Shown piece after piece: positions 2,499 to 8,971 of a stretch of DNA of 8,971 nt. Made by a program: the position numbers and the translations under genes. Location: the IMG/VR virus record IMGVR_UViG_2602041905_000014. One strand, 5' to 3'. The notes under the pieces are model-generated. The model did not search any database, had not been told where the DNA came from, and was given only the letters and a program-made list of their open reading frames with translations. Origin of the DNA: a virus. Lineage: Duplodnaviria > Heunggongvirae > Uroviricota > Caudoviricetes. Within the stretch, counting starts at the first letter, position 1. Each line of letters begins with the position of its first letter.

Positions 2499-2549
2499 AA
2501 CCAAACGACTCGGGGTGCCCTTCTTTGTGAAGGCTGAGAAATACCCGTA
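2499..2549 (+). ncRNA. TPP riboswitch (thiM leader), 5' portion only; the match ends at the island junction
   Basis: ACGACTCGGGGTGCCCTTCTTTGTGAAGGCTGAGAAATACCCGTAT matches the thiM thi-box aptamer (GGGGUGCCC...GGCUGAGAAAUACCCGUAU) as I recall it. The expected continuation (CACCUGAUCUGGAUAAUGCCAGCGUAGGGAA) is absent; unrelated T/G-rich DNA follows from 2550. Confidence 0.7.
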
Positions 2550-2688
2550 TTTTCTCATTTAGTGTTTTTTGTAGTTCGGGAGTGTTCGTGATTGTTTGTG
2601 TATTTGTTTGATATACAATGATTTAATTGGCTTTCTTGTTTGTTGCTGTTCGTTGTTGTTTGCCGAGCTTCAGCGAAATGTGTGGTCA

Positions 2689-2738: not shown

Positions 2739-3959
2739 GTGGGAAAAGCACTAAACAAACTGAGCGATTCAACGTTAAAAAAATTGGTGGCTGTCCAGGC
2801 AGAAAAAGAGCGTTTTTACTCCGACGGGGGCGGGCTGGAGATTAAACACTCAAAGGGCGGCAAATTAACCTGGTATTTCCGGTACCGAACGGGAGGCCGT
2901 GAGGTTGCCGCAGAGCGGTTAAAGCTGGGGGCTTACCCTGAATTGTCGCTGAAAGCCGCAAGGGAAAAACGCACACTGTGCCGGGCATGGCTGGCTGAGG
3001 GTAAAAACCCCCGTTATGAGTTGTGCGCCACAGTACAGGAAGCACTAAAACCCGTTACGGTGAAGGAAGCGATTAACTACTGGCTGGAGGAATATGCGAA
3101 GGATAACCGCAAAGATTACATAAAGCTGGTGCAGCGTATGGATAAGCACATCATTTGCCATATTGGGGCAATTCCCCTTGATAAGTGTGATACAAGGCAG
3201 TGGATCGCATGTTTTGACCGCGTACGAAAAAAAGCACCAGTAGCAGCGGGCCATGTCATGCAGACATGCAAACAGGCGCTAAAGTTTTGCCGCAGGCGGC
3301 GCTACGCGTTTAGCAACGCCCTGGACGATTTGATCGTTACTGATGTGGGTAAGAGAGCAGAAATCCGCGAGAGAGTGCACAGCAACAGCGAACTAAAAGA
3401 AATTCTACGCGCTATTGATGGTGATGTGTTCGCTCCCTATTACAGTGCGTTAATGCGCTTGTTAATTGTGTTCGGGTGCAGAACGGCAGAGATCAGACTT
3501 TCAGAGATCAAAGAATGGGATCTGAAAGAAATGTTGTGGACAGTGCCAAAAGAGCACAGCAAAACGAAGGTAACAATATTCCGACCTATTCCTGATGGTA
3601 TTTTGCCGTTCATTCAGAAGCTGGTGGAGCAAAACGCACACACTGGGTTATTACTCGGCGAACTGAAAAAAGATACCACGGTGGCGCAATATGGACGAAA
3701 TGCGCATAAGCGGCTTAAGCAGGAACACTGGACGCTGCATGATTTCCGACACACGTTTACAACTATGCTGAATGATTTAGGTGTCGATCCGCATATCGTG
3801 GAGCACATCACAGCGCATCAGATGCCAGGTCAGCAAAAAACCTATAACCATTCACGCTATTTGCAGGCGAAACGGGACGCACTGAATCTATGGGTTGAGC
3901 GTCTTGATGTGATTGCAGGATATAATGAAAATATTGTGATATTGAGAGGGATACAATGA
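2739..3959 (+). CDS. int: Tyrosine site-specific integrase (phage P4-type), 406 aa, GTG start
   Basis: N-terminal arm-binding-type region (YSDGGGLEIKHSKGGKLTWYFRYR). C-terminal catalytic signature HDFRHTF, then HxxxH and the tyrosine in TYNHSRY. GTG start with an AAGAGG Shine-Dalgarno motif 8 nt upstream. Confidence 0.9.
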   Translation: MGKALNKLSDSTLKKLVAVQAEKERFYSDGGGLEIKHSKGGKLTWYFRYRTGGREVAAERLKLGAYPELSLKAAREKRTLCRAWLAEGKNPRYELCATVQEALKPVTVKEAINYWLEEYAKDNRKDYIKLVQRMDKHIICHIGAIPLDKCDTRQWIACFDRVRKKAPVAAGHVMQTCKQALKFCRRRRYAFSNALDDLIVTDVGKRAEIRERVHSNSELKEILRAIDGDVFAPYYSALMRLLIVFGCRTAEIRLSEIKEWDLKEMLWTVPKEHSKTKVTIFRPIPDGILPFIQKLVEQNAHTGLLLGELKKDTTVAQYGRNAHKRLKQEHWTLHDFRHTFTTMLNDLGVDPHIVEHITAHQMPGQQKTYNHSRYLQAKRDALNLWVERLDVIAGYNENIVILRGIQ

Positions 3960-4810
3960 CGAAAAAAGTAAATAGTAAAAAAGATTTACCAAAGTCATTT
4001 GATTTAGGCAAATATGATTGCCTAGAAAACTTGTCGGATAAAGATCTATTTCGCCAATTATATTGGCGACAAGATGATTTAACAATGAAACATTCTGAGA
4101 TGCCTGAATATGGATTTATGTTTGGTGCTGAATACCCGTTGCATAATAATTACGGGGATCCATTTGGAGAGCTGAAAGAAGACGATTGGTTTTGTGATAA
4201 ACAAAAAGAATATGACCATAAAGTGCAACCGAAGTTAATTGAGCTAAGTTATGATGATGGAATTAAACCTGTAACAAGGTTTGATATATCAATGATTAAT
4301 AAACTGACTGCGGAAAGAGGATATTGGAAGGATAAACCAATCATCATAGATAATGAGATGGTTGGAAGTTTAATATCAGAAGATAATGGGATGTTTTGGG
4401 CTGTGATGCGTGAACCAGTGAATCTCCTTTCTGATACATTAGATAATATGCTTGTTTCTGTTGACTTACTACATAACAGAGATGATGAGTTGATTGAAGC
4501 GTTTACAAAACTATTACCAAAATGGCGTAGTGAACTTTCAATTGTTGAGCCAGACAAACCAATTGCAGGAAGTTGGGAAAGCATACGACGTAAAATTATT
4601 GATTATAAGATAATCCCATTAATTGACTTATTATCTTGGGAGTTGTCTACAGATAGAAAAATTTCATTAGGGGTGCTTGCCGTATCTTTGTACCCTGATG
4701 GTGAAAAGGACACCTTTGCTATTGCTCAGACTGTAAAACCTTTCTTAGAAAAAATAATGCGCAGCGATTCTTTAGAAAAAATAAGAAAAATGTTATCTAA
4801 TGAAAATTAA
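3956..4810 (+). CDS. Hypothetical protein, 284 aa, acidic, no recognisable motif; AT-rich gene translationally coupled to int
   Basis: Its ATG (3956-3958) overlaps the int TGA (3957-3959) as ATGA, with a GAGAGGG Shine-Dalgarno motif upstream. A long uninterrupted ORF whose base composition is visibly more AT-rich than the flanking int and alpA genes. Confidence 0.7.
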   Translation: MTKKVNSKKDLPKSFDLGKYDCLENLSDKDLFRQLYWRQDDLTMKHSEMPEYGFMFGAEYPLHNNYGDPFGELKEDDWFCDKQKEYDHKVQPKLIELSYDDGIKPVTRFDISMINKLTAERGYWKDKPIIIDNEMVGSLISEDNGMFWAVMREPVNLLSDTLDNMLVSVDLLHNRDDELIEAFTKLLPKWRSELSIVEPDKPIAGSWESIRRKIIDYKIIPLIDLLSWELSTDRKISLGVLAVSLYPDGEKDTFAIAQTVKPFLEKIMRSDSLEKIRKMLSNEN

Positions 4811-4913: not shown

Positions 4914-5138
4914 ATGAATCAAAATACACAATTTCAATCACTAACAGATCGCGTAATTCGTGAGGATGAATGTCGTAAGTTAACAGGCGTCAGCCGTACT
5001 ACACGCTACGAACTGGAGAAGAAAGGGGGCTTTCCGTCTCGCCGTAATCTTGGGGGGCGTTCTGTAGGCTGGTTGCTTTCCGAAGTTATGGACTGGGTGC
5101 AAAGCCGTGACCGCGTTAATTCAGGTAAGGCAGCCTAG
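4914..5138 (+). CDS. alpA: AlpA-family phage transcriptional regulator (MerR-like HTH, excisionase-like), 74 aa
   Basis: The translation (LTDRVIREDECRKLTGVSRTTRYELEKKGGFPSRRNLGGRSVGWLLSEVMDWV) has the AlpA-family HTH pattern. Its size and its position near the integrase are typical of P4-like islands. Confidence 0.85.
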   Translation: MNQNTQFQSLTDRVIREDECRKLTGVSRTTRYELEKKGGFPSRRNLGGRSVGWLLSEVMDWVQSRDRVNSGKAA

Positions 5139-5354
5139 GGGGGAGCTATGACACATAAAACAAAGGCGACCGGGGGCGGTCGCCAGTGGCATAACACTAA
5201 ACTTGAGCATATCCAGAATACCAGGTTGTCGGCTAGTGGGCAATGCTATCAGTCTGGCTCGATTCGCTGCCATGCCTGCAATGAGCGTATTTTCCTAGAA
5301 TACTCTTTAAGGTACTTCTCAAGGATAAACGCACATGGTGCGAATCTCTCCGGT

Positions 5355-5576
5355 TCATGTTCGTTTACCGCATTTTTGCGTTGTTTTTTCTTGGATGAGG
5401 ATAATTTCTNNNNNNNNNNGACGCTGGCGGTATTCAACTTCTCGCTTTAATGCTGCTGTTACAAACTGCCCTGTACTTTCACCAGGCATTTTTACCGCCT
5501 CAACATTGTTCATAACTTCATGCGGAACCCTTGCCGCAACTGTTTGTGATTTTGCGTTTACTGCTTTTGTCGCCAT
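5355..5576 (-). CDS. Putative ribbon-helix-helix (Arc/MetJ/CopG-like) DNA-binding regulator; the 3' end is uncertain because the frame crosses the N gap
   Basis: Minus-strand ATG at 5574-5576 with an AAGGAG Shine-Dalgarno motif 8 nt upstream. The N-terminal 52 aa (MATKAVNAKSQTVAARVPHEVMNNVEAVKMPGESTGQFVTAALKREVEYRQR) fit a beta-strand plus two-helix RHH layout. It is divergent from the operator-bearing promoter region. Confidence 0.5.
   Translation of the reverse strand: MATKAVNAKSQTVAARVPHEVMNNVEAVKMPGESTGQFVTAALKREVEYRQRXXXXEIILIQEKTTQKCGKRT
5410..5419. other. Assembly gap (run of 10 N)
   Basis: Ten consecutive N characters. The true length and sequence are unknown, so every reading frame crossing it is unreliable. 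Confidence 0.99.
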
Positions 5577-5625
5577 GTTGTGTACTCCTTACAAAAAACA
5601 AATGCAGTATGCAGGAAAAAAAATA

Positions 5626-5677
5626 AGTGTTCAACACTTGACGTGTTTAACACCTAGGCTTAAATTGGTGTTTAACA
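5626..5677. promoter_or_regulatory. Operator/promoter region: three 11-bp palindromes GTGTT-N-AACAC overlapping a sigma70-like promoter
   Basis: Palindromes at 5626-5636 (GTGTTCAACAC), 5642-5652 and 5667-5677 (both GTGTTTAACAC). TTGACG (5637-5642) plus TTAAAT/TAAATT about 16-17 nt downstream (around 5659-5665) form a plausible rightward promoter with the palindromes at the -35, spacer and start region. Confidence 0.65.
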
Positions 5678-5775
5678 CCTTGTTGATGCAAGGTGCAGAA
5701 ACGACGAAACCCGGCAGTGCGCTAACACTAACCGGGCTTCTAACCACCAACGATAGCAGAAGTATCGAGGTAGCT

Positions 5776-5979
5776 ATGTTAAATCATACCACACACCCGC
5801 AAGGGCGGGACTCGCACAACCTGAATAAATTCATCTGGCGTTTTATCGCCCTGAGCACGGCACAACCGCGCGTGATTCACATCGTGGCCACCAGCGAACA
5901 GGAAGCACGCCAGCAATCCCCGGCTGGCTGCGTGATGATATTCGCCGCCCGTATTCGTCAGGGGGTGTGCCATGCCTGA
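5776..5979 (+). CDS. Small hypothetical protein, 67 aa, first gene of the rightward operon; possibly of the Icd-like family seen in P4-like prophages (recollection, unverified)
   Basis: ATG at 5776 preceded by GAGGT, in frame with the tail of the gap-spanning ORF 5335-5979. Its stop overlaps the start of the next ORF. Confidence 0.4.
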   Translation: MLNHTTHPQGRDSHNLNKFIWRFIALSTAQPRVIHIVATSEQEARQQSPAGCVMIFAARIRQGVCHA

Positions 5980-6298: not shown

Positions 6299-6598
6299 AT
6301 GAGAACATATTTATCTGGCTTGACTGCCAGCGGTTATGCACACCCCAAAATTATCCCCGGCGCTATTTATCTGGATAAGAACGGTAACAGAGTAACGGTA
6401 AAAGAACTGATGTTTGACCGTGTGTATTTTATTCGTGATGGCTATTCATTTCATAGTTCGCTGAACGTGGAGATCTTTATTAGCAGATTCAGGCGGGAAA
6501 TCCCGCTTTCCAGAAATAATCATGTGTCATGTATGGATGTTGATAAAAAACTACAGGAACTGAAAAACATGATTGCCGCGTGGAGAGAGCAGAAATGA
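6299..6598 (+). CDS. Hypothetical small protein, 99 aa; resembles the DUF4222-type small proteins of P4-like prophages (recollection, unverified)
   Basis: ATG at 6299 is 6 nt after the previous stop. Its TGA (6596-6598) overlaps the ATG (6595-6597) of the helicase gene as ATGA. Pattern Y-D-x-x-G-x-RV-V ... DRV-F-R-GY. Confidence 0.55.
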   Translation: MRTYLSGLTASGYAHPKIIPGAIYLDKNGNRVTVKELMFDRVYFIRDGYSFHSSLNVEIFISRFRREIPLSRNNHVSCMDVDKKLQELKNMIAAWREQK

Positions 6599-8412
6599 AA
6601 AAAGCGCCAAATTTAAAACACCAGCCGCGTGACAAAATGACGGAAGTCATCATTTTTGCGGGTAGTGATGCGTGGGCACATGCGAAGCAGTGGCAGGAAC
6701 AGGACGGGCGACTGGCAGGCGATAACGTGCCACCTGTCTGGCTTGGAGAGCAACAACTTGCCGAACTGGACAACCTGCAAATCGTACCGGACGGACGCTA
6801 TCGCGTGCGTCTCTATCAGGCGGGGTTATTGCGTCCGGTGCTTGTTAATACCATCGGGCAGAAACTGGCAGCGGCAGGTGTCAGGGATGCTGATTATTAT
6901 CCTGAAGGAATGCACAGCCAGAAACGGGAGAACTGGCACGAATATCTGGAACGTGAACGGGCAGAGCTGGCGGAAAAGAAAAAGGTAGTTGAACTGCCTG
7001 TAAAGAAAAAAGAGCGGGTAAAAGACGATAACGCTTCATCACTGGCGCTTAACCAGATGGGAGCAAGTCAACGCGGCGAAGTTCTCCTGGCACATTATGG
7101 CGGTGAACTGGCGATTCATGCTGACTCTGACACTGTTCACCATTACAACGGCGTTGTATGGGAGCCAGTACAGGATAAAGAATTACAGCGAGCTATGGCA
7201 CAGATTTTCATTGATGCGGAGATCAGCTATTCGCAGAACGCCATTAAATCGGCGGTCGATACCATGAAGTTAAGTTTGCCTGTAATGGGGAATACAGCCC
7301 GTAACCTGATTGGATTCAGTAACGGGGTATTTGATACCAGAACAGGTAATTTTCGGGAGCATAACAAAAACGACTGGTTGTTAATTGCCAGTGAATTACC
7401 TTTCAGCCCACCAGCAGAGGGGGAAACGCTGGCAACACATGCGCCGAATTTCTGGAAGTGGTTACGCCGTTCGGTGGCTGAGAATGACCGCAAGGCGGAT
7501 CGCGTACTGGCTGCATTATTCATGGTGCTGGCGAACCGGTACGACTGGCAGTTATTCATTGAGGTAACAGGTCCAGGGGGAAGTGGTAAAAGCGTGATGG
7601 CGGAGATTTGCACCATGCTGGCGGGTAAGGCCAACACAGTATCGGCAAGCATGAAGGCGCTGGAAGATGCAAGGGAACGCGCGTTAGTGGTTGGCTTTTC
7701 GCTGATTATCATGCCGGATATGACCCGCTACGCTGGTGATGGGGCAGGGATTAAGGCTATTACAGGCGGTGACAAGGTGGCAATTGACCCGAAACACAAA
7801 GCCCCCTACTCAACGCGTATTCCGGCAGTAGTGCTGGCGGTTAACAATAACGCCATGTCATTCAGTGACCGCAGCGGGGGGATCTCACGTCGTCGGGTGA
7901 TATTCAATTTTTCGGAAGTTGTACCGGAGAACGAACGTGATCCAATGCTGGCCGAAAAAATAGAAGGTGAGCTGGCGGTAGTGATTCGCCATCTGCTTAC
8001 ACGGTTTGCTGACCAGGACGAAGCCAGACGCCTGTTATATGAGCAGCAGAAATCTGAAGAAGCACTGGCGATAAAGCGAGAGGGGGATTCGCTGGTGGAC
8101 TTCTGCGGCTATCTCATGGCGTCGGTAATGTGTGATGGCCTGTTAGTGGGTAATGCTGAAATTGTGCCATTCAGCCCACGCAGGTATCTCTATCATGCCT
8201 ATCTGGCTTATATGAGGGCACATGGGTTTGGTAAACCTGTAACACTGACGCGCTTCGGTAAAGATATGCCGGGGGCAATGGCGGAATATGGCAGGGAGTA
8301 TATGAAACGGAAAACGAAGCACGGTTTGCGTTCAAACGTGACACTGACGGAGGAATCAGAAGACTGGATGCCATCATGTGTATCGGTCACTAATGACGAT
8401 AGCAAAAATTAA
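6595..8412 (+). CDS. P4 alpha-like replication protein: P4-family primase C-terminal / D5-like SF3 helicase domain with a C-terminal origin-binding region, 605 aa from ATG 6595 (the track's GTG at 6580 is less likely)
   Basis: Walker A motif TGPGGSGKS inside the segment DWQLFIEVTGPGGSGKSVMAEIC, which is characteristic of P4-type primase-helicases. GGAGAGAG Shine-Dalgarno motif 5 nt before ATG 6595. Cognate-looking iterons lie immediately downstream. Confidence 0.85.
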   Translation: MKKAPNLKHQPRDKMTEVIIFAGSDAWAHAKQWQEQDGRLAGDNVPPVWLGEQQLAELDNLQIVPDGRYRVRLYQAGLLRPVLVNTIGQKLAAAGVRDADYYPEGMHSQKRENWHEYLERERAELAEKKKVVELPVKKKERVKDDNASSLALNQMGASQRGEVLLAHYGGELAIHADSDTVHHYNGVVWEPVQDKELQRAMAQIFIDAEISYSQNAIKSAVDTMKLSLPVMGNTARNLIGFSNGVFDTRTGNFREHNKNDWLLIASELPFSPPAEGETLATHAPNFWKWLRRSVAENDRKADRVLAALFMVLANRYDWQLFIEVTGPGGSGKSVMAEICTMLAGKANTVSASMKALEDARERALVVGFSLIIMPDMTRYAGDGAGIKAITGGDKVAIDPKHKAPYSTRIPAVVLAVNNNAMSFSDRSGGISRRRVIFNFSEVVPENERDPMLAEKIEGELAVVIRHLLTRFADQDEARRLLYEQQKSEEALAIKREGDSLVDFCGYLMASVMCDGLLVGNAEIVPFSPRRYLYHAYLAYMRAHGFGKPVTLTRFGKDMPGAMAEYGREYMKRKTKHGLRSNVTLTEESEDWMPSCVSVTNDDSKN

Positions 8413-8425
8413 ACTTATGGAATAA

Positions 8426-8648
8426 CTGTTCACCACTGTTCACCCCGTCATAAATGTCTTTTATATCATTATATTATAGGGTGAACAGTTATTTATGAAC
8501 TGTTCACCAAACTATTCACTGTTCACCTTTTTGATTGTTTATTGAGCTGCAAGGGTGAACAGTGGTGAACAGTTGGTGAATAGTTTTTGTGAAACTGTTC
8601 ACCCCTTAACATTATGAATTGAAAGAGAAAATAGCAAAAGGTGAACAG
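8426..8648. repeat. Iteron cluster (putative ori or crr of the P4-like replicon): about 9 perfect and 2 degenerate copies of CTGTTCACC / GGTGAACAG in both orientations
   Basis: Perfect copies at 8426-8434, 8436-8444, 8480-8488 (reverse), 8500-8508, 8519-8527, 8554-8562 (reverse), 8564-8572 (reverse), 8595-8603 and 8640-8648 (reverse). Degenerate copies at 8511-8519 and 8575-8583. The TGTTCACC octamer is the type I iteron bound by P4 alpha. Confidence 0.85.
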
Positions 8649-8971
8649 GTGAAGGGTTAAAATACAAAAATTTTATTACAGCATGGAATATTAAGTTTTA
8701 GCCGACAGGTAGTTAGCCATAAGAGGATATTTGTCGCTTAGTATTACGTACATAACAGCAAACACTTTTCTGGTTTGCTGGATTAATAGATAAGCGCTAT
8801 AAGTTAGTTAGTTTTGAAAAATTTATTGAATAACTCTAAGCTTTCAGGATGTATATATTGAGTAGGGTAACTGATACGTTGTGAGCGTCCAATTTTTATT
8901 GTGTTCTTTTTCGTCTTCCCAAAAAATAGATTCTTCCATGTTAAAATGTTTCCGTGATTATATTTATTGTC

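Follow-up and report, generated by a model that had tools for sequence, protein, structure and literature searches.

The gene and the adjoining repeat array analysed here very probably form the replication module, a pri/rep gene with its predicted cognate origin, of a variant of the published PICI EcCI224, with initiation following the scheme proposed below (the window is the whole 8,971-nt stretch of DNA, IMG/VR record IMGVR_UViG_2602041905_000014). A working type of replicon had been recognised correctly in the preliminary description from the letters alone, but the finding is an ordinary one because gene and origin belong to a catalogued E. coli phage satellite. The module is of a kind already on record, and its sole fresh point is that no primase domain can be recognised in the so-called primase.

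The element is a Gram-negative PICI

Gram-negative PICIs are defined by a size of ~8-12 kb, direct att repeats, int at one end and a rightward int-alpA-...-pri/rep order (Fillol-Salom 2018, PMC6092414), and the island shows this size, the att repeats, a terminal int and unidirectional rightward transcription. It is ~10.95 kb long, is integrated between rcnR and thiM and is flanked by the att core AGAAATACCCGTAT, of which 33 kb of sequence hold exactly two copies, 10.95 kb apart: attL at 2537-2550 (+ strand) and an identical attR core beyond the window, at 25486-25499 of the identical genome copy L001. The island's tyrosine integrase (2739-3959, +) is identified by Pfam Arm-DNA-bind_3 and Phage_integrase and by RefSeq annotation, and Pfam Phage_AlpA (E=4.8e-16) identifies an AlpA-family regulator (4914-5138, +), whose counterpart in EcCICFT073 is the activator of the PICI operon (PMC6092414). 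The integrase and alpA genes are intact, and so are the two att cores. A DUF4222 gene (6299-6598, +), whose stop overlaps the pri start codon in an ATGA at 6595-6598, precedes pri, as it also does in EcCICFT073 and EcCI224, and the gene order int-alpA-ylcI-icd-DUF4222-pri-ori-capsid agrees with that of both.

The closest comparison is EcCI224 (E. coli Ecol_224; Fillol-Salom et al. 2018, PMC6092414 Table S1), which has the same att core, site (rcnR/'frmR'-thiM) and gene order, 97-98% DNA identity to the window up to position 8675, a Pri protein identical at 601 of 605 residues and identical iterons throughout. From window position 8675 on, EcCI224 differs in the accessory region, where the HEPN-domain gene is that of the window island. 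Among Gram-negative PICIs, the element is an EcCI224 variant, whose replication gene and origin are the gene and repeats analysed here. It had been filed as 'P4-type', and this label has to be replaced: homologues of the P4-like satellite core genes psu, sid, delta, epsilon and cnr were neither annotated nor detected in the island, which has one mirrored origin, whereas P4 requires two cis elements (ori1 and crr) 4.5 kb apart, the crr consisting of tandem repeats. The two ORFs that precede pri showed no homology to P4 ORF106 or ORF151.

The island's packaging genes amount to a protease-capsid fusion, a DUF1441 protein and one small ORF, which falls short of a full set, and this downstream packaging region is smaller than that of capsid-forming PICIs. 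PADLOC returned no match for the HEPN, DUF6387, DUF4222 and 106-aa proteins. Rfam matches in the island were all below threshold, including a MIR821 'hit' that was discarded as merely reflecting the palindromic AT-rich origin, and a 214-aa ORF at 5335-5979 was rejected as a gene because a masked run of N lies within it.

Pri is a predicted SF3 helicase with a winged-helix domain

The pri/rep gene (6595-8412, +; ATG at 6595, TAA at 8410-8412) encodes a 605-aa protein that domain searches and alignment to P4 alpha define as an SF3 helicase and origin-binding protein related to P4 alpha, in which no primase domain can be recognised; RefSeq labels the same gene 'DNA primase family protein' at 18684-20501 of the identical genome copy L001. 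The alpha-like similarity proposed in the preliminary description is borne out, as residues 145-595, which cover the SF3 helicase and winged-helix parts, are 51% identical to P4 alpha 320-771, and a D5-like similarity is present as well, in the form of a D5_N domain at residues 162-291 (7078-7467, +; Pfam PF08706, E=1.5e-13). The SF3 P-loop NTPase core follows at residues 325-433 (7567-7893, +; Pfam DUF5906, a weak match to PPV_E1_C, and alignment to P4 alpha). Its motifs, read from the P4 alpha alignment, are Walker A (GPGGSGKS, 326-333), Walker B (LIIMPD, 370-375), motif C (VVLAVNN, 412-418) and an arginine run (R432-R434); P4 alpha carries paired arginines (PMC2777425). Given D5_N, the P-loop core, Walker A and B, motif C and the arginine finger, Pri is a predicted SF3 (D5/E1-like) helicase. 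At its C-terminus, a winged-helix origin-binding domain (residues 496-593; 8080-8373, +) is indicated by Pfam Pox_D5 and by the wing alignment, and matches the origin-binding domain of P4 alpha (PDB 1KA8, E=1.8e-24).

The N-terminal 144 residues are a different matter. P4 alpha has a primase part consisting of Zn_Ribbon_Prim (30-66) and Toprim_3 (210-299), and Pri has neither: its alignment to P4 alpha begins at P4 residue 320 and covers the helicase and DNA-binding parts only, so the earlier remark that the N-terminal region is too short for the full P4 primase domain stands. The N-terminus gave no match to Pfam (E<=1) or NCBIfam, and an hhalign profile comparison between its family (A1) and the primase region of P4 alpha reached a probability of 0.35%, on the wrong segment. 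A Foldseek search of the N-terminal model yielded no significant match in the PDB and a single match in BFVD, an uncharacterised 112-aa phage protein. The module contains no Cys and no Zn-ribbon. When positions are placed by means of the model's secondary structure, A22-G23 stand where a TOPRIM domain would have its Glu after beta1 in 18 divergent members, and R/S72 and Y/F74 where it would have its DxD after beta3 in all 18, with no acidic residue at the beta1 or beta3 ends in any of them. The module is a small, lineage-restricted alpha/beta unit that accounts for 91 clusters out of 1.84 billion representatives, and it may be a TOPRIM that has lost catalysis. Domain shuffling has joined it to no fewer than four families of replicative NTPase (P4-alpha-type SF3, DUF927, AAA_25/RepA-like and VapE-like). 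Human Twinkle, whose N-terminus is a degenerate primase-like domain, is a helicase of the DnaB/T7 gp4 type (SF4), whereas Pri belongs to SF3, and any homology between the two would be putative. The island was searched for another primase-like gene, and none was found.

A mirrored iteron array adjoins pri

PICI origins lie directly 3' of the initiator gene and consist of two iteron sets flanking AT-rich DNA (Fillol-Salom 2018, PMC6092414), and just such an arrangement follows pri, with spacers of 69-77% AT and the same map as in EcCICFT073. The octamer TGTTCACC, identical to the P4 type 1 repeat as had been proposed, occurs ten times in the window, nine times at 8427-8647 (orientations ++-++--+-) and once inside the gene at 7134, compared with a chance expectation of 0.26 copies per window and a maximum of two in dinucleotide-preserving shuffles. 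The gap of 14 nt that had been reported between gene and cluster is seen at 8413-8426. Eight of the nine clustered copies extend to the 10-mer ACTGTTCACC. Three degenerate copies, at 8513 (TATTCACT), 8575 (reverse complement, TATTCACC) and 8648 (reverse complement, CCTTCACC), bring the array to 12 sites, which refines the earlier count of about ten in both orientations. These 12 (AC)TGTTCACC sites begin 12-14 nt past the pri stop and form a 6+6 mirror about ~8541 in which all 12 are paired; two of the 12 have two mismatches, and such sites arise by chance at a rate of 0.58 per 258 bp.

The left half-origin (8425-8527) holds six iterons (++ then -+++) and encloses a 35-bp spacer (8445-8479, 77% AT). 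It is followed by a central 26-bp spacer (8528-8553, 69% AT) with the dyad centre at ~8541 and by the right half-origin (8554-8655), a mirror of the left (---+ then --) with a 36-bp spacer (8604-8639, 75% AT) and the inverted repeats I1 and I2. Beyond the in-gene octamer, no further copy of TGTTCACC occurs in the surrounding 33 kb of chromosome, and no terminator was found between pri and the origin. A literature search with the octamer returned matches dominated by unrelated primer sequences.

Conservation of the array and covariation with the wing

Density of the octamer elsewhere is low in relatives too: across 80 related IMG/VR loci, the 300 bp past the stop codon contain 680 copies of TGTTCACC versus 108 in the other 762 kb, most of the latter being two conserved in-gene copies, and 79 of the 80 loci have 6-9 exact octamers in this 300-bp interval. 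In one relative (L063), iterons of the TGTTCATT type, TGTTCAT[T/C/A], occupy the same positions, and the wing reads KKRTTAG versus KRKTKHG in the window protein. Repeat and wing are again distinct in EcCICFT073 and in phage Scapp, each of which has its own pair. Judged by these alignments, the iterons and the DNA-binding wing covary in sequence from relative to relative, and the joint change in L063 is a sign that binding is still under selection. Downstream of the Pasteurella Pmp7 homologue, a hairpin and no iterons were found, which added no further protein/iteron pair.

A relative with an experimentally validated replicon is EcCICFT073, whose Pri is 49% identical to that of the window over its full length, N-terminal module included, and which shares the operon layout with DUF4222 immediately upstream of pri. 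Its origin, which starts 15 nt past the stop, repeats the mirrored site map of the window but uses another iteron (TGTCTACC), and its wing sequence (YITRKVKGVTQTN) is different too; unlike the window element, it has ssb and perC downstream. The EcCICFT073 pri-ori sustains a temperature-sensitive plasmid in DH5alpha and its delta-pri and delta-ori derivatives fail (PMC6092414), so the cloning assay suggested in the preliminary description had already been done for a relative. Autonomous pri-ori replication, phage-dependent induction and transfer have been demonstrated for EcCICFT073 only (PMC6092414), and it is solely from this assayed homologue that we infer the window element to be replication-competent as well. 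In SaPIs, as described in PMC6092414, the Pri/Rep-ori is similarly built, in that the gene for the initiator-helicase is followed directly by the origin, where sets of iterons flank AT-rich DNA, whereas the SaPI Pri/Rep is of a different protein family and is accompanied by a separate pri gene.

Proposed working of the replicon and alternative readings

We propose that, once a helper phage has induced the AlpA-driven operon, Pri would bind the iterons through its winged-helix domain. The six sites of each half may nucleate one hexamer, and two hexamers would therefore be placed head to head, melt the AT-rich spacers and then unwind the DNA bidirectionally, with the excised island replicating first in theta and then in concatemeric form. 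Since Pri has neither a Zn-ribbon nor the catalytic TOPRIM residues, primers would most likely be of host origin, the likeliest source being DnaG once DnaB has been loaded at the melted origin; alternatively, transcripts reading through from pri could serve. We infer both the double-hexamer model and the host-primase route. At the origins of papillomavirus (E1) and SV40 (large T antigen), SF3 initiators assemble double hexamers. These initiators also combine an SF3 helicase and their own origin-binding domain with a dyad-symmetric, AT-flanked origin, although the likeness is a mechanistic analogy only, the window Pri having a C-terminal winged-helix DNA-binding domain, 6+6 sites and a bacterial setting. 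The iterons beside pri are its predicted cognate sites, as had been proposed; to call the replicon 'self-contained' would not be wholly accurate should the host supply the priming.

Pri might nevertheless be a primase whose N-terminal module is TOPRIM-like with a non-canonical active site, which would make the replicon self-sufficient like that of P4 alpha. We consider this unlikely, because the module lacks Cys and a Zn-ribbon, has no acidic residue at the beta1 and beta3 ends of its divergent members and gives no Pfam, NCBIfam or hhalign signal, and because its ~130 aa are too few to hold both the N-terminal subdomain and the TOPRIM that a DnaG-type RNA-polymerase domain requires. Nor is an intrinsic primase required by the plasmid test, as DnaG is available in DH5alpha. 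A joint reading, in which the PICI 'DNA primase' would not be a primase, its module would be an adaptor for host priming or loading factors, and P4-like satellites and EcCI224-type PICIs would cross-fire or titrate each other's origins, is offered tentatively, as somewhat less than an even prospect.

Two further alternatives concern the array. It could be a crr-like enhancer, the true origin being a second cis element elsewhere as in P4, where the crr iteron cluster lies directly 3' of alpha just as the window cluster lies 3' of pri and where, as here, a pair of direct iterons is separated by ~35 bp of AT-rich DNA from an inverted one; the conserved iteron inside the gene at 7134 also fits this. 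Yet no second iteron cluster was found in the ~10.95-kb island or its flanks, the EcCICFT073 construct replicates with pri and the adjoining cluster alone, and the 6+6 array is mirrored, unlike the tandem crr units, which together make an enhancer role very improbable. Even more doubtful is that the module is a decayed or domesticated remnant whose iterons are relics or mere operators or handcuffing sites on an island that no longer replicates. The incomplete packaging set would suit such a remnant, but the 605-aa ORF is unbroken and retains every SF3 motif, the att cores, int and alpA are likewise intact, the 90% protein cluster containing Pri has 3078 members, iteron positions are kept in 79 of 80 loci, and iterons and wing changed together in L063. 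The replication module of an EcCI224-type PICI thus remains the preferred reading.

For such a module, a PICI 'primase' without a recognisable primase domain bears on the host dependence of these satellites, and the precise 6+6 mirror suits double-hexamer loading of an SF3 helicase, a model that is testable. As P4 and the PICI have the octamer in common, cross-talk or incompatibility is predicted between two abundant families of Enterobacteria satellites: since the PICI uses the exact P4 iteron with a related winged-helix domain, P4-like satellites might fire or titrate the origins of EcCI224-type PICIs and vice versa. L063, finally, is a natural specificity switch that could be used to map iteron-wing recognition.

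Pri and its adjacent iteron array

The pri gene (6595-8412, plus strand) encodes a 605-aa protein, Pri, and the same gene is called by RefSeq in the identical E. coli chromosomal copy; its start codon shares bases with the stop codon of the DUF4222 gene ahead of it (ATGA, 6595-6598). The octamer TGTTCACC occurs 10 times in the window versus 0.26 expected from shuffles, and 9 of the 10 fall within 8427-8647, in both orientations and starting 14 nt past the pri stop codon, which bears out the earlier observation of a helicase gene beside iterons. All but one of these nine extend to ACTGTTCACC. With three degenerate copies (TATTCACT at 8513 and, as reverse complements, TATTCACC at 8575 and CCTTCACC at 8648) the array comprises 12 sites, oriented ++ -+++ in one half and ---+ -- in the other, each pairing with a mirror-image site to within 2 nt around position 8541. 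Each half contains an AT-rich spacer (8445-8479, 77% AT; 8604-8639, 75% AT) and a 26-bp spacer forms the centre. Two-mismatch sites have a chance rate of ~0.6 per 258 bp, but at the positions equivalent to such sites the relative vB_KppS-Ant (LR881103.1) carries exact or one-mismatch copies.

Outside the array the octamer shows no enrichment: across the surrounding 33 kb of chromosome the in-gene copy is the only one, and in 80 related IMG/VR loci 680 copies lie within 300 bp 3' of the gene versus 108 in the other 762 kb, the majority of the 108 being two conserved in-gene copies. The window's in-gene copy (7134-7141, codons for TVHH) is kept in most close relatives, and other relatives have a different one, 570 nt before the stop codon; such copies may reflect chance, coding constraint or a regulatory role. 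No terminator was found between pri and the origin, so transcripts may run through the origin, which could assist in opening it or in priming. An Rfam match to the plant microRNA MIR821 over the origin (20542-20721 of the 33-kb chromosomal locus; E=0.0007, far below gathering score) is a false positive caused by the long imperfect palindrome.

Helicase and origin-binding domains of Pri

Pfam annotation placed D5_N at residues 162-291, DUF5906 (the SF3 P-loop core) at 325-433 and Pox_D5 at 496-591, and residues 145-595 are 51% identical to residues 320-771 of P4 alpha, the replication protein of bacteriophage P4. From this alignment we read Walker A (GPGGSGKS, 326-333), Walker B (LIIMPD, 370-375), motif C (412-418) and an arginine run (432-434) at a position where P4 alpha has paired arginines (PMC2777425). 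Residues 497-593 match 1KA8, the solved origin-binding winged-helix domain of P4 alpha (E=1.8e-24). The proposed functional reading, an initiator helicase with its cognate origin, holds.

The wing of this domain and the repeat covary: the window and EcCI224 (wing YMKRKTKHGLRSN), vB_KppS-Ant (YQKRKTKNGIRSN) and P4 (YEKRHTKQGIQTN) have the repeat TGTTCACC, while wing YMKKRTTAGVRSN of the relative L063 goes with TGTTCAT[T/C/A], YITRKVKGVTQTN of EcCICFT073 with TGTCTACC and YNVRRSNGKDYIN of Serratia phage Scapp with GAAAAGTGCAA. The L063 protein is 95% identical to Pri overall with substitutions concentrated at residues 572-600, and its altered iterons occupy the same array positions. This covariation, qualitative and drawn from few lineages, is consistent with the winged-helix wing recognising its cognate repeat.

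The N-terminal module of Pri

The suspicion that the primase part is missing proved correct, since P4 alpha has Zn_Ribbon_Prim (30-66) and Toprim_3 (210-299) and domain annotation found neither in Pri, whose N-terminal 144 aa matched nothing in Pfam or NCBIfam, even at E<=1, and contain zero cysteines. When 1.84 billion representative proteins were searched exhaustively with phmmer, this module was recovered in only 91 clusters, from Enterobacteria and more divergent relatives resembling Pasteurella phage homologues. In full-length members it precedes four NTPase families (D5_N/DUF5906/Pox_D5, DUF927, RepA-like AAA_25 and VapE-like), canonical members of which usually have a primase domain at this position.

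The AlphaFold model of the module is confident (pLDDT 86.9, pTM 0.78; 32 sequences) and predicts beta18-22, alpha26-40, beta48-50, alpha52-56, beta70-75, alpha81-93, beta98-102 and alpha115-133. In an alignment of 18 members, including some of 28-36% identity, beta1 is followed by A22 (17/18) and G23 (18/18), and beta3 ends with R/S72 and Y/F74 before an invariant G77. All 18 lack an acidic residue at the TOPRIM Glu and DxD positions, as mapped via the model's secondary structure rather than by superposition, and no primase-like gene was found elsewhere in the island, making intrinsic primase activity unlikely. Three database proteins (P0002, P0050, P0083) join the module directly to SSB or PerC sequence; as EcCICFT073 has ssb and perC just downstream of its origin, they are probably deletion derivatives without helicase and origin.

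Relationship to EcCI224

E. coli chromosomes match the window at 100% identity, with at least 80% of it present in ~50 of 5426 complete genomes. Strain SCU-123 carries the module on an island located between rcnR and thiM. This island comprises int, a DUF6387 gene, alpA, ylcI/ynfO (minus), an icd-like gene, a hypothetical gene, a DUF4222 gene, pri with the iteron array, a HEPN gene and a small ORF (both minus), a ClpP-protease/major-capsid fusion gene, a DUF1441 gene and a hypothetical gene. None of psu, sid, delta and epsilon is in the island, and neither of the two ORFs ahead of pri is related to P4 ORF106 or ORF151. The 10.6-kb PICI EcCI224 was placed at 'frmR-thiM' with att core AGAAATACCCGTAT (Table S1, Fillol-Salom et al. 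2018, PMC6092414), and the 33-kb locus contains exactly two copies of this 14-mer, one at 2537-2550 and the other 10.95 kb further downstream, immediately before the thiM TPP riboswitch. EcCI224 Pri is identical at 601/605 residues (all four differences fall in the N-terminal module), the iterons of the EcCI224 origin are the same, and the two islands diverge only past 8675, right after the origin. By these sequence comparisons the element is therefore a variant of a catalogued PICI and not a P4-like satellite, and the label "P4-type replicon" in the preliminary description gives way to that of a pri-ori module belonging to a known PICI family.

Past 8675 (20893-21866 of the chromosomal locus) lie a minus-strand HEPN-domain gene (237 aa, 8804 to window end) and a 42-aa ORF; PADLOC found no match in this region, which resembles a variable slot for cargo or defence genes. 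The DUF6387 gene (3956-4810) overlaps the stop codon of the integrase gene (3956-3959), and neither PADLOC nor NCBIfam gave a match for it; accessory genes have been placed at this int-alpA interval (PMC6092414). The DUF4222 gene (6299-6598) is translationally coupled to pri in the window, EcCI224 and EcCICFT073, making its product a candidate accessory factor of the replicon. A 10-N run (5410-5419), overlapping the 3' end of the minus-strand YlcI/YnfO gene, stands for 99 real bases (17410-17508 of the locus; no Rfam family at E<0.1), so a 214-aa ORF at 5335-5979 is an artefact; the true gene is the 67-aa icd-like gene (5776-5979; NCBIfam phage_ICD_like, E=6e-20). Directly upstream of and antisense to it is a weak SymR-antitoxin-like Rfam match (17792-17864 minus of the locus, ~5703-5775 in the window; 33.6 bits versus gathering score 61, E=0.003), whose placement is reminiscent of the c4/CI antisense-RNA-icd arrangement in P1 and P4 but could equally be chance.

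Comparison with EcCICFT073 and P4

EcCICFT073 shares the operon layout, with DUF4222 directly before pri. The two Pri proteins align from end to end at 49% identity, N-terminal module included. The EcCICFT073 origin begins 15 nt past the stop codon, has a site map nearly superimposable on the window's with 10/11 sites mirrored, and differs in its octamer (TGTCTACC). A plasmid with EcCICFT073 pri and origin was kept in DH5alpha at restrictive temperature while delta-pri and delta-ori plasmids were not, and AlpA over-expression led to pri-dependent replication of the island (PMC6092414). Thus, the replication test proposed earlier has already been done on a homologue; the module family is already described. 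As DH5alpha carries no helper phage, a Pri of this primase-less architecture needs only host factors.

The P4 crr, directly 3' of alpha and 4.5 kb from ori1, consists of two tandem 120-bp units, each reading ++ [AT-rich] ---+ when degenerate copies are counted. Both a crr unit and the PICI origin open with two direct sites, an AT-rich stretch of ~35 bp and then one inverted site, but the PICI origin as a whole forms one inverted duplication. The count of six sites per unit, common to both systems, suggests that each unit may load one hexamer, and the mirrored units suggest that loading would yield a head-to-head double hexamer, an arrangement known from other SF3 initiators. What remains new is modest and lies in the apparent absence of any primase in a 'primase', the shuffling of the N-terminal module, the exact 6+6 mirror geometry and the octamer common to P4 and PICI, which predicts cross-talk between both satellite families.

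The 16.5-kb 'Escherichia phage vB_KppS-Ant', deposited as a phage, has the int-regulator-pri-ori layout, a 75% identical Pri and the same 12-site origin, and also terminase, portal, capsid and connector genes, and thus has the appearance of a capsid-forming PICI, not of a phage.
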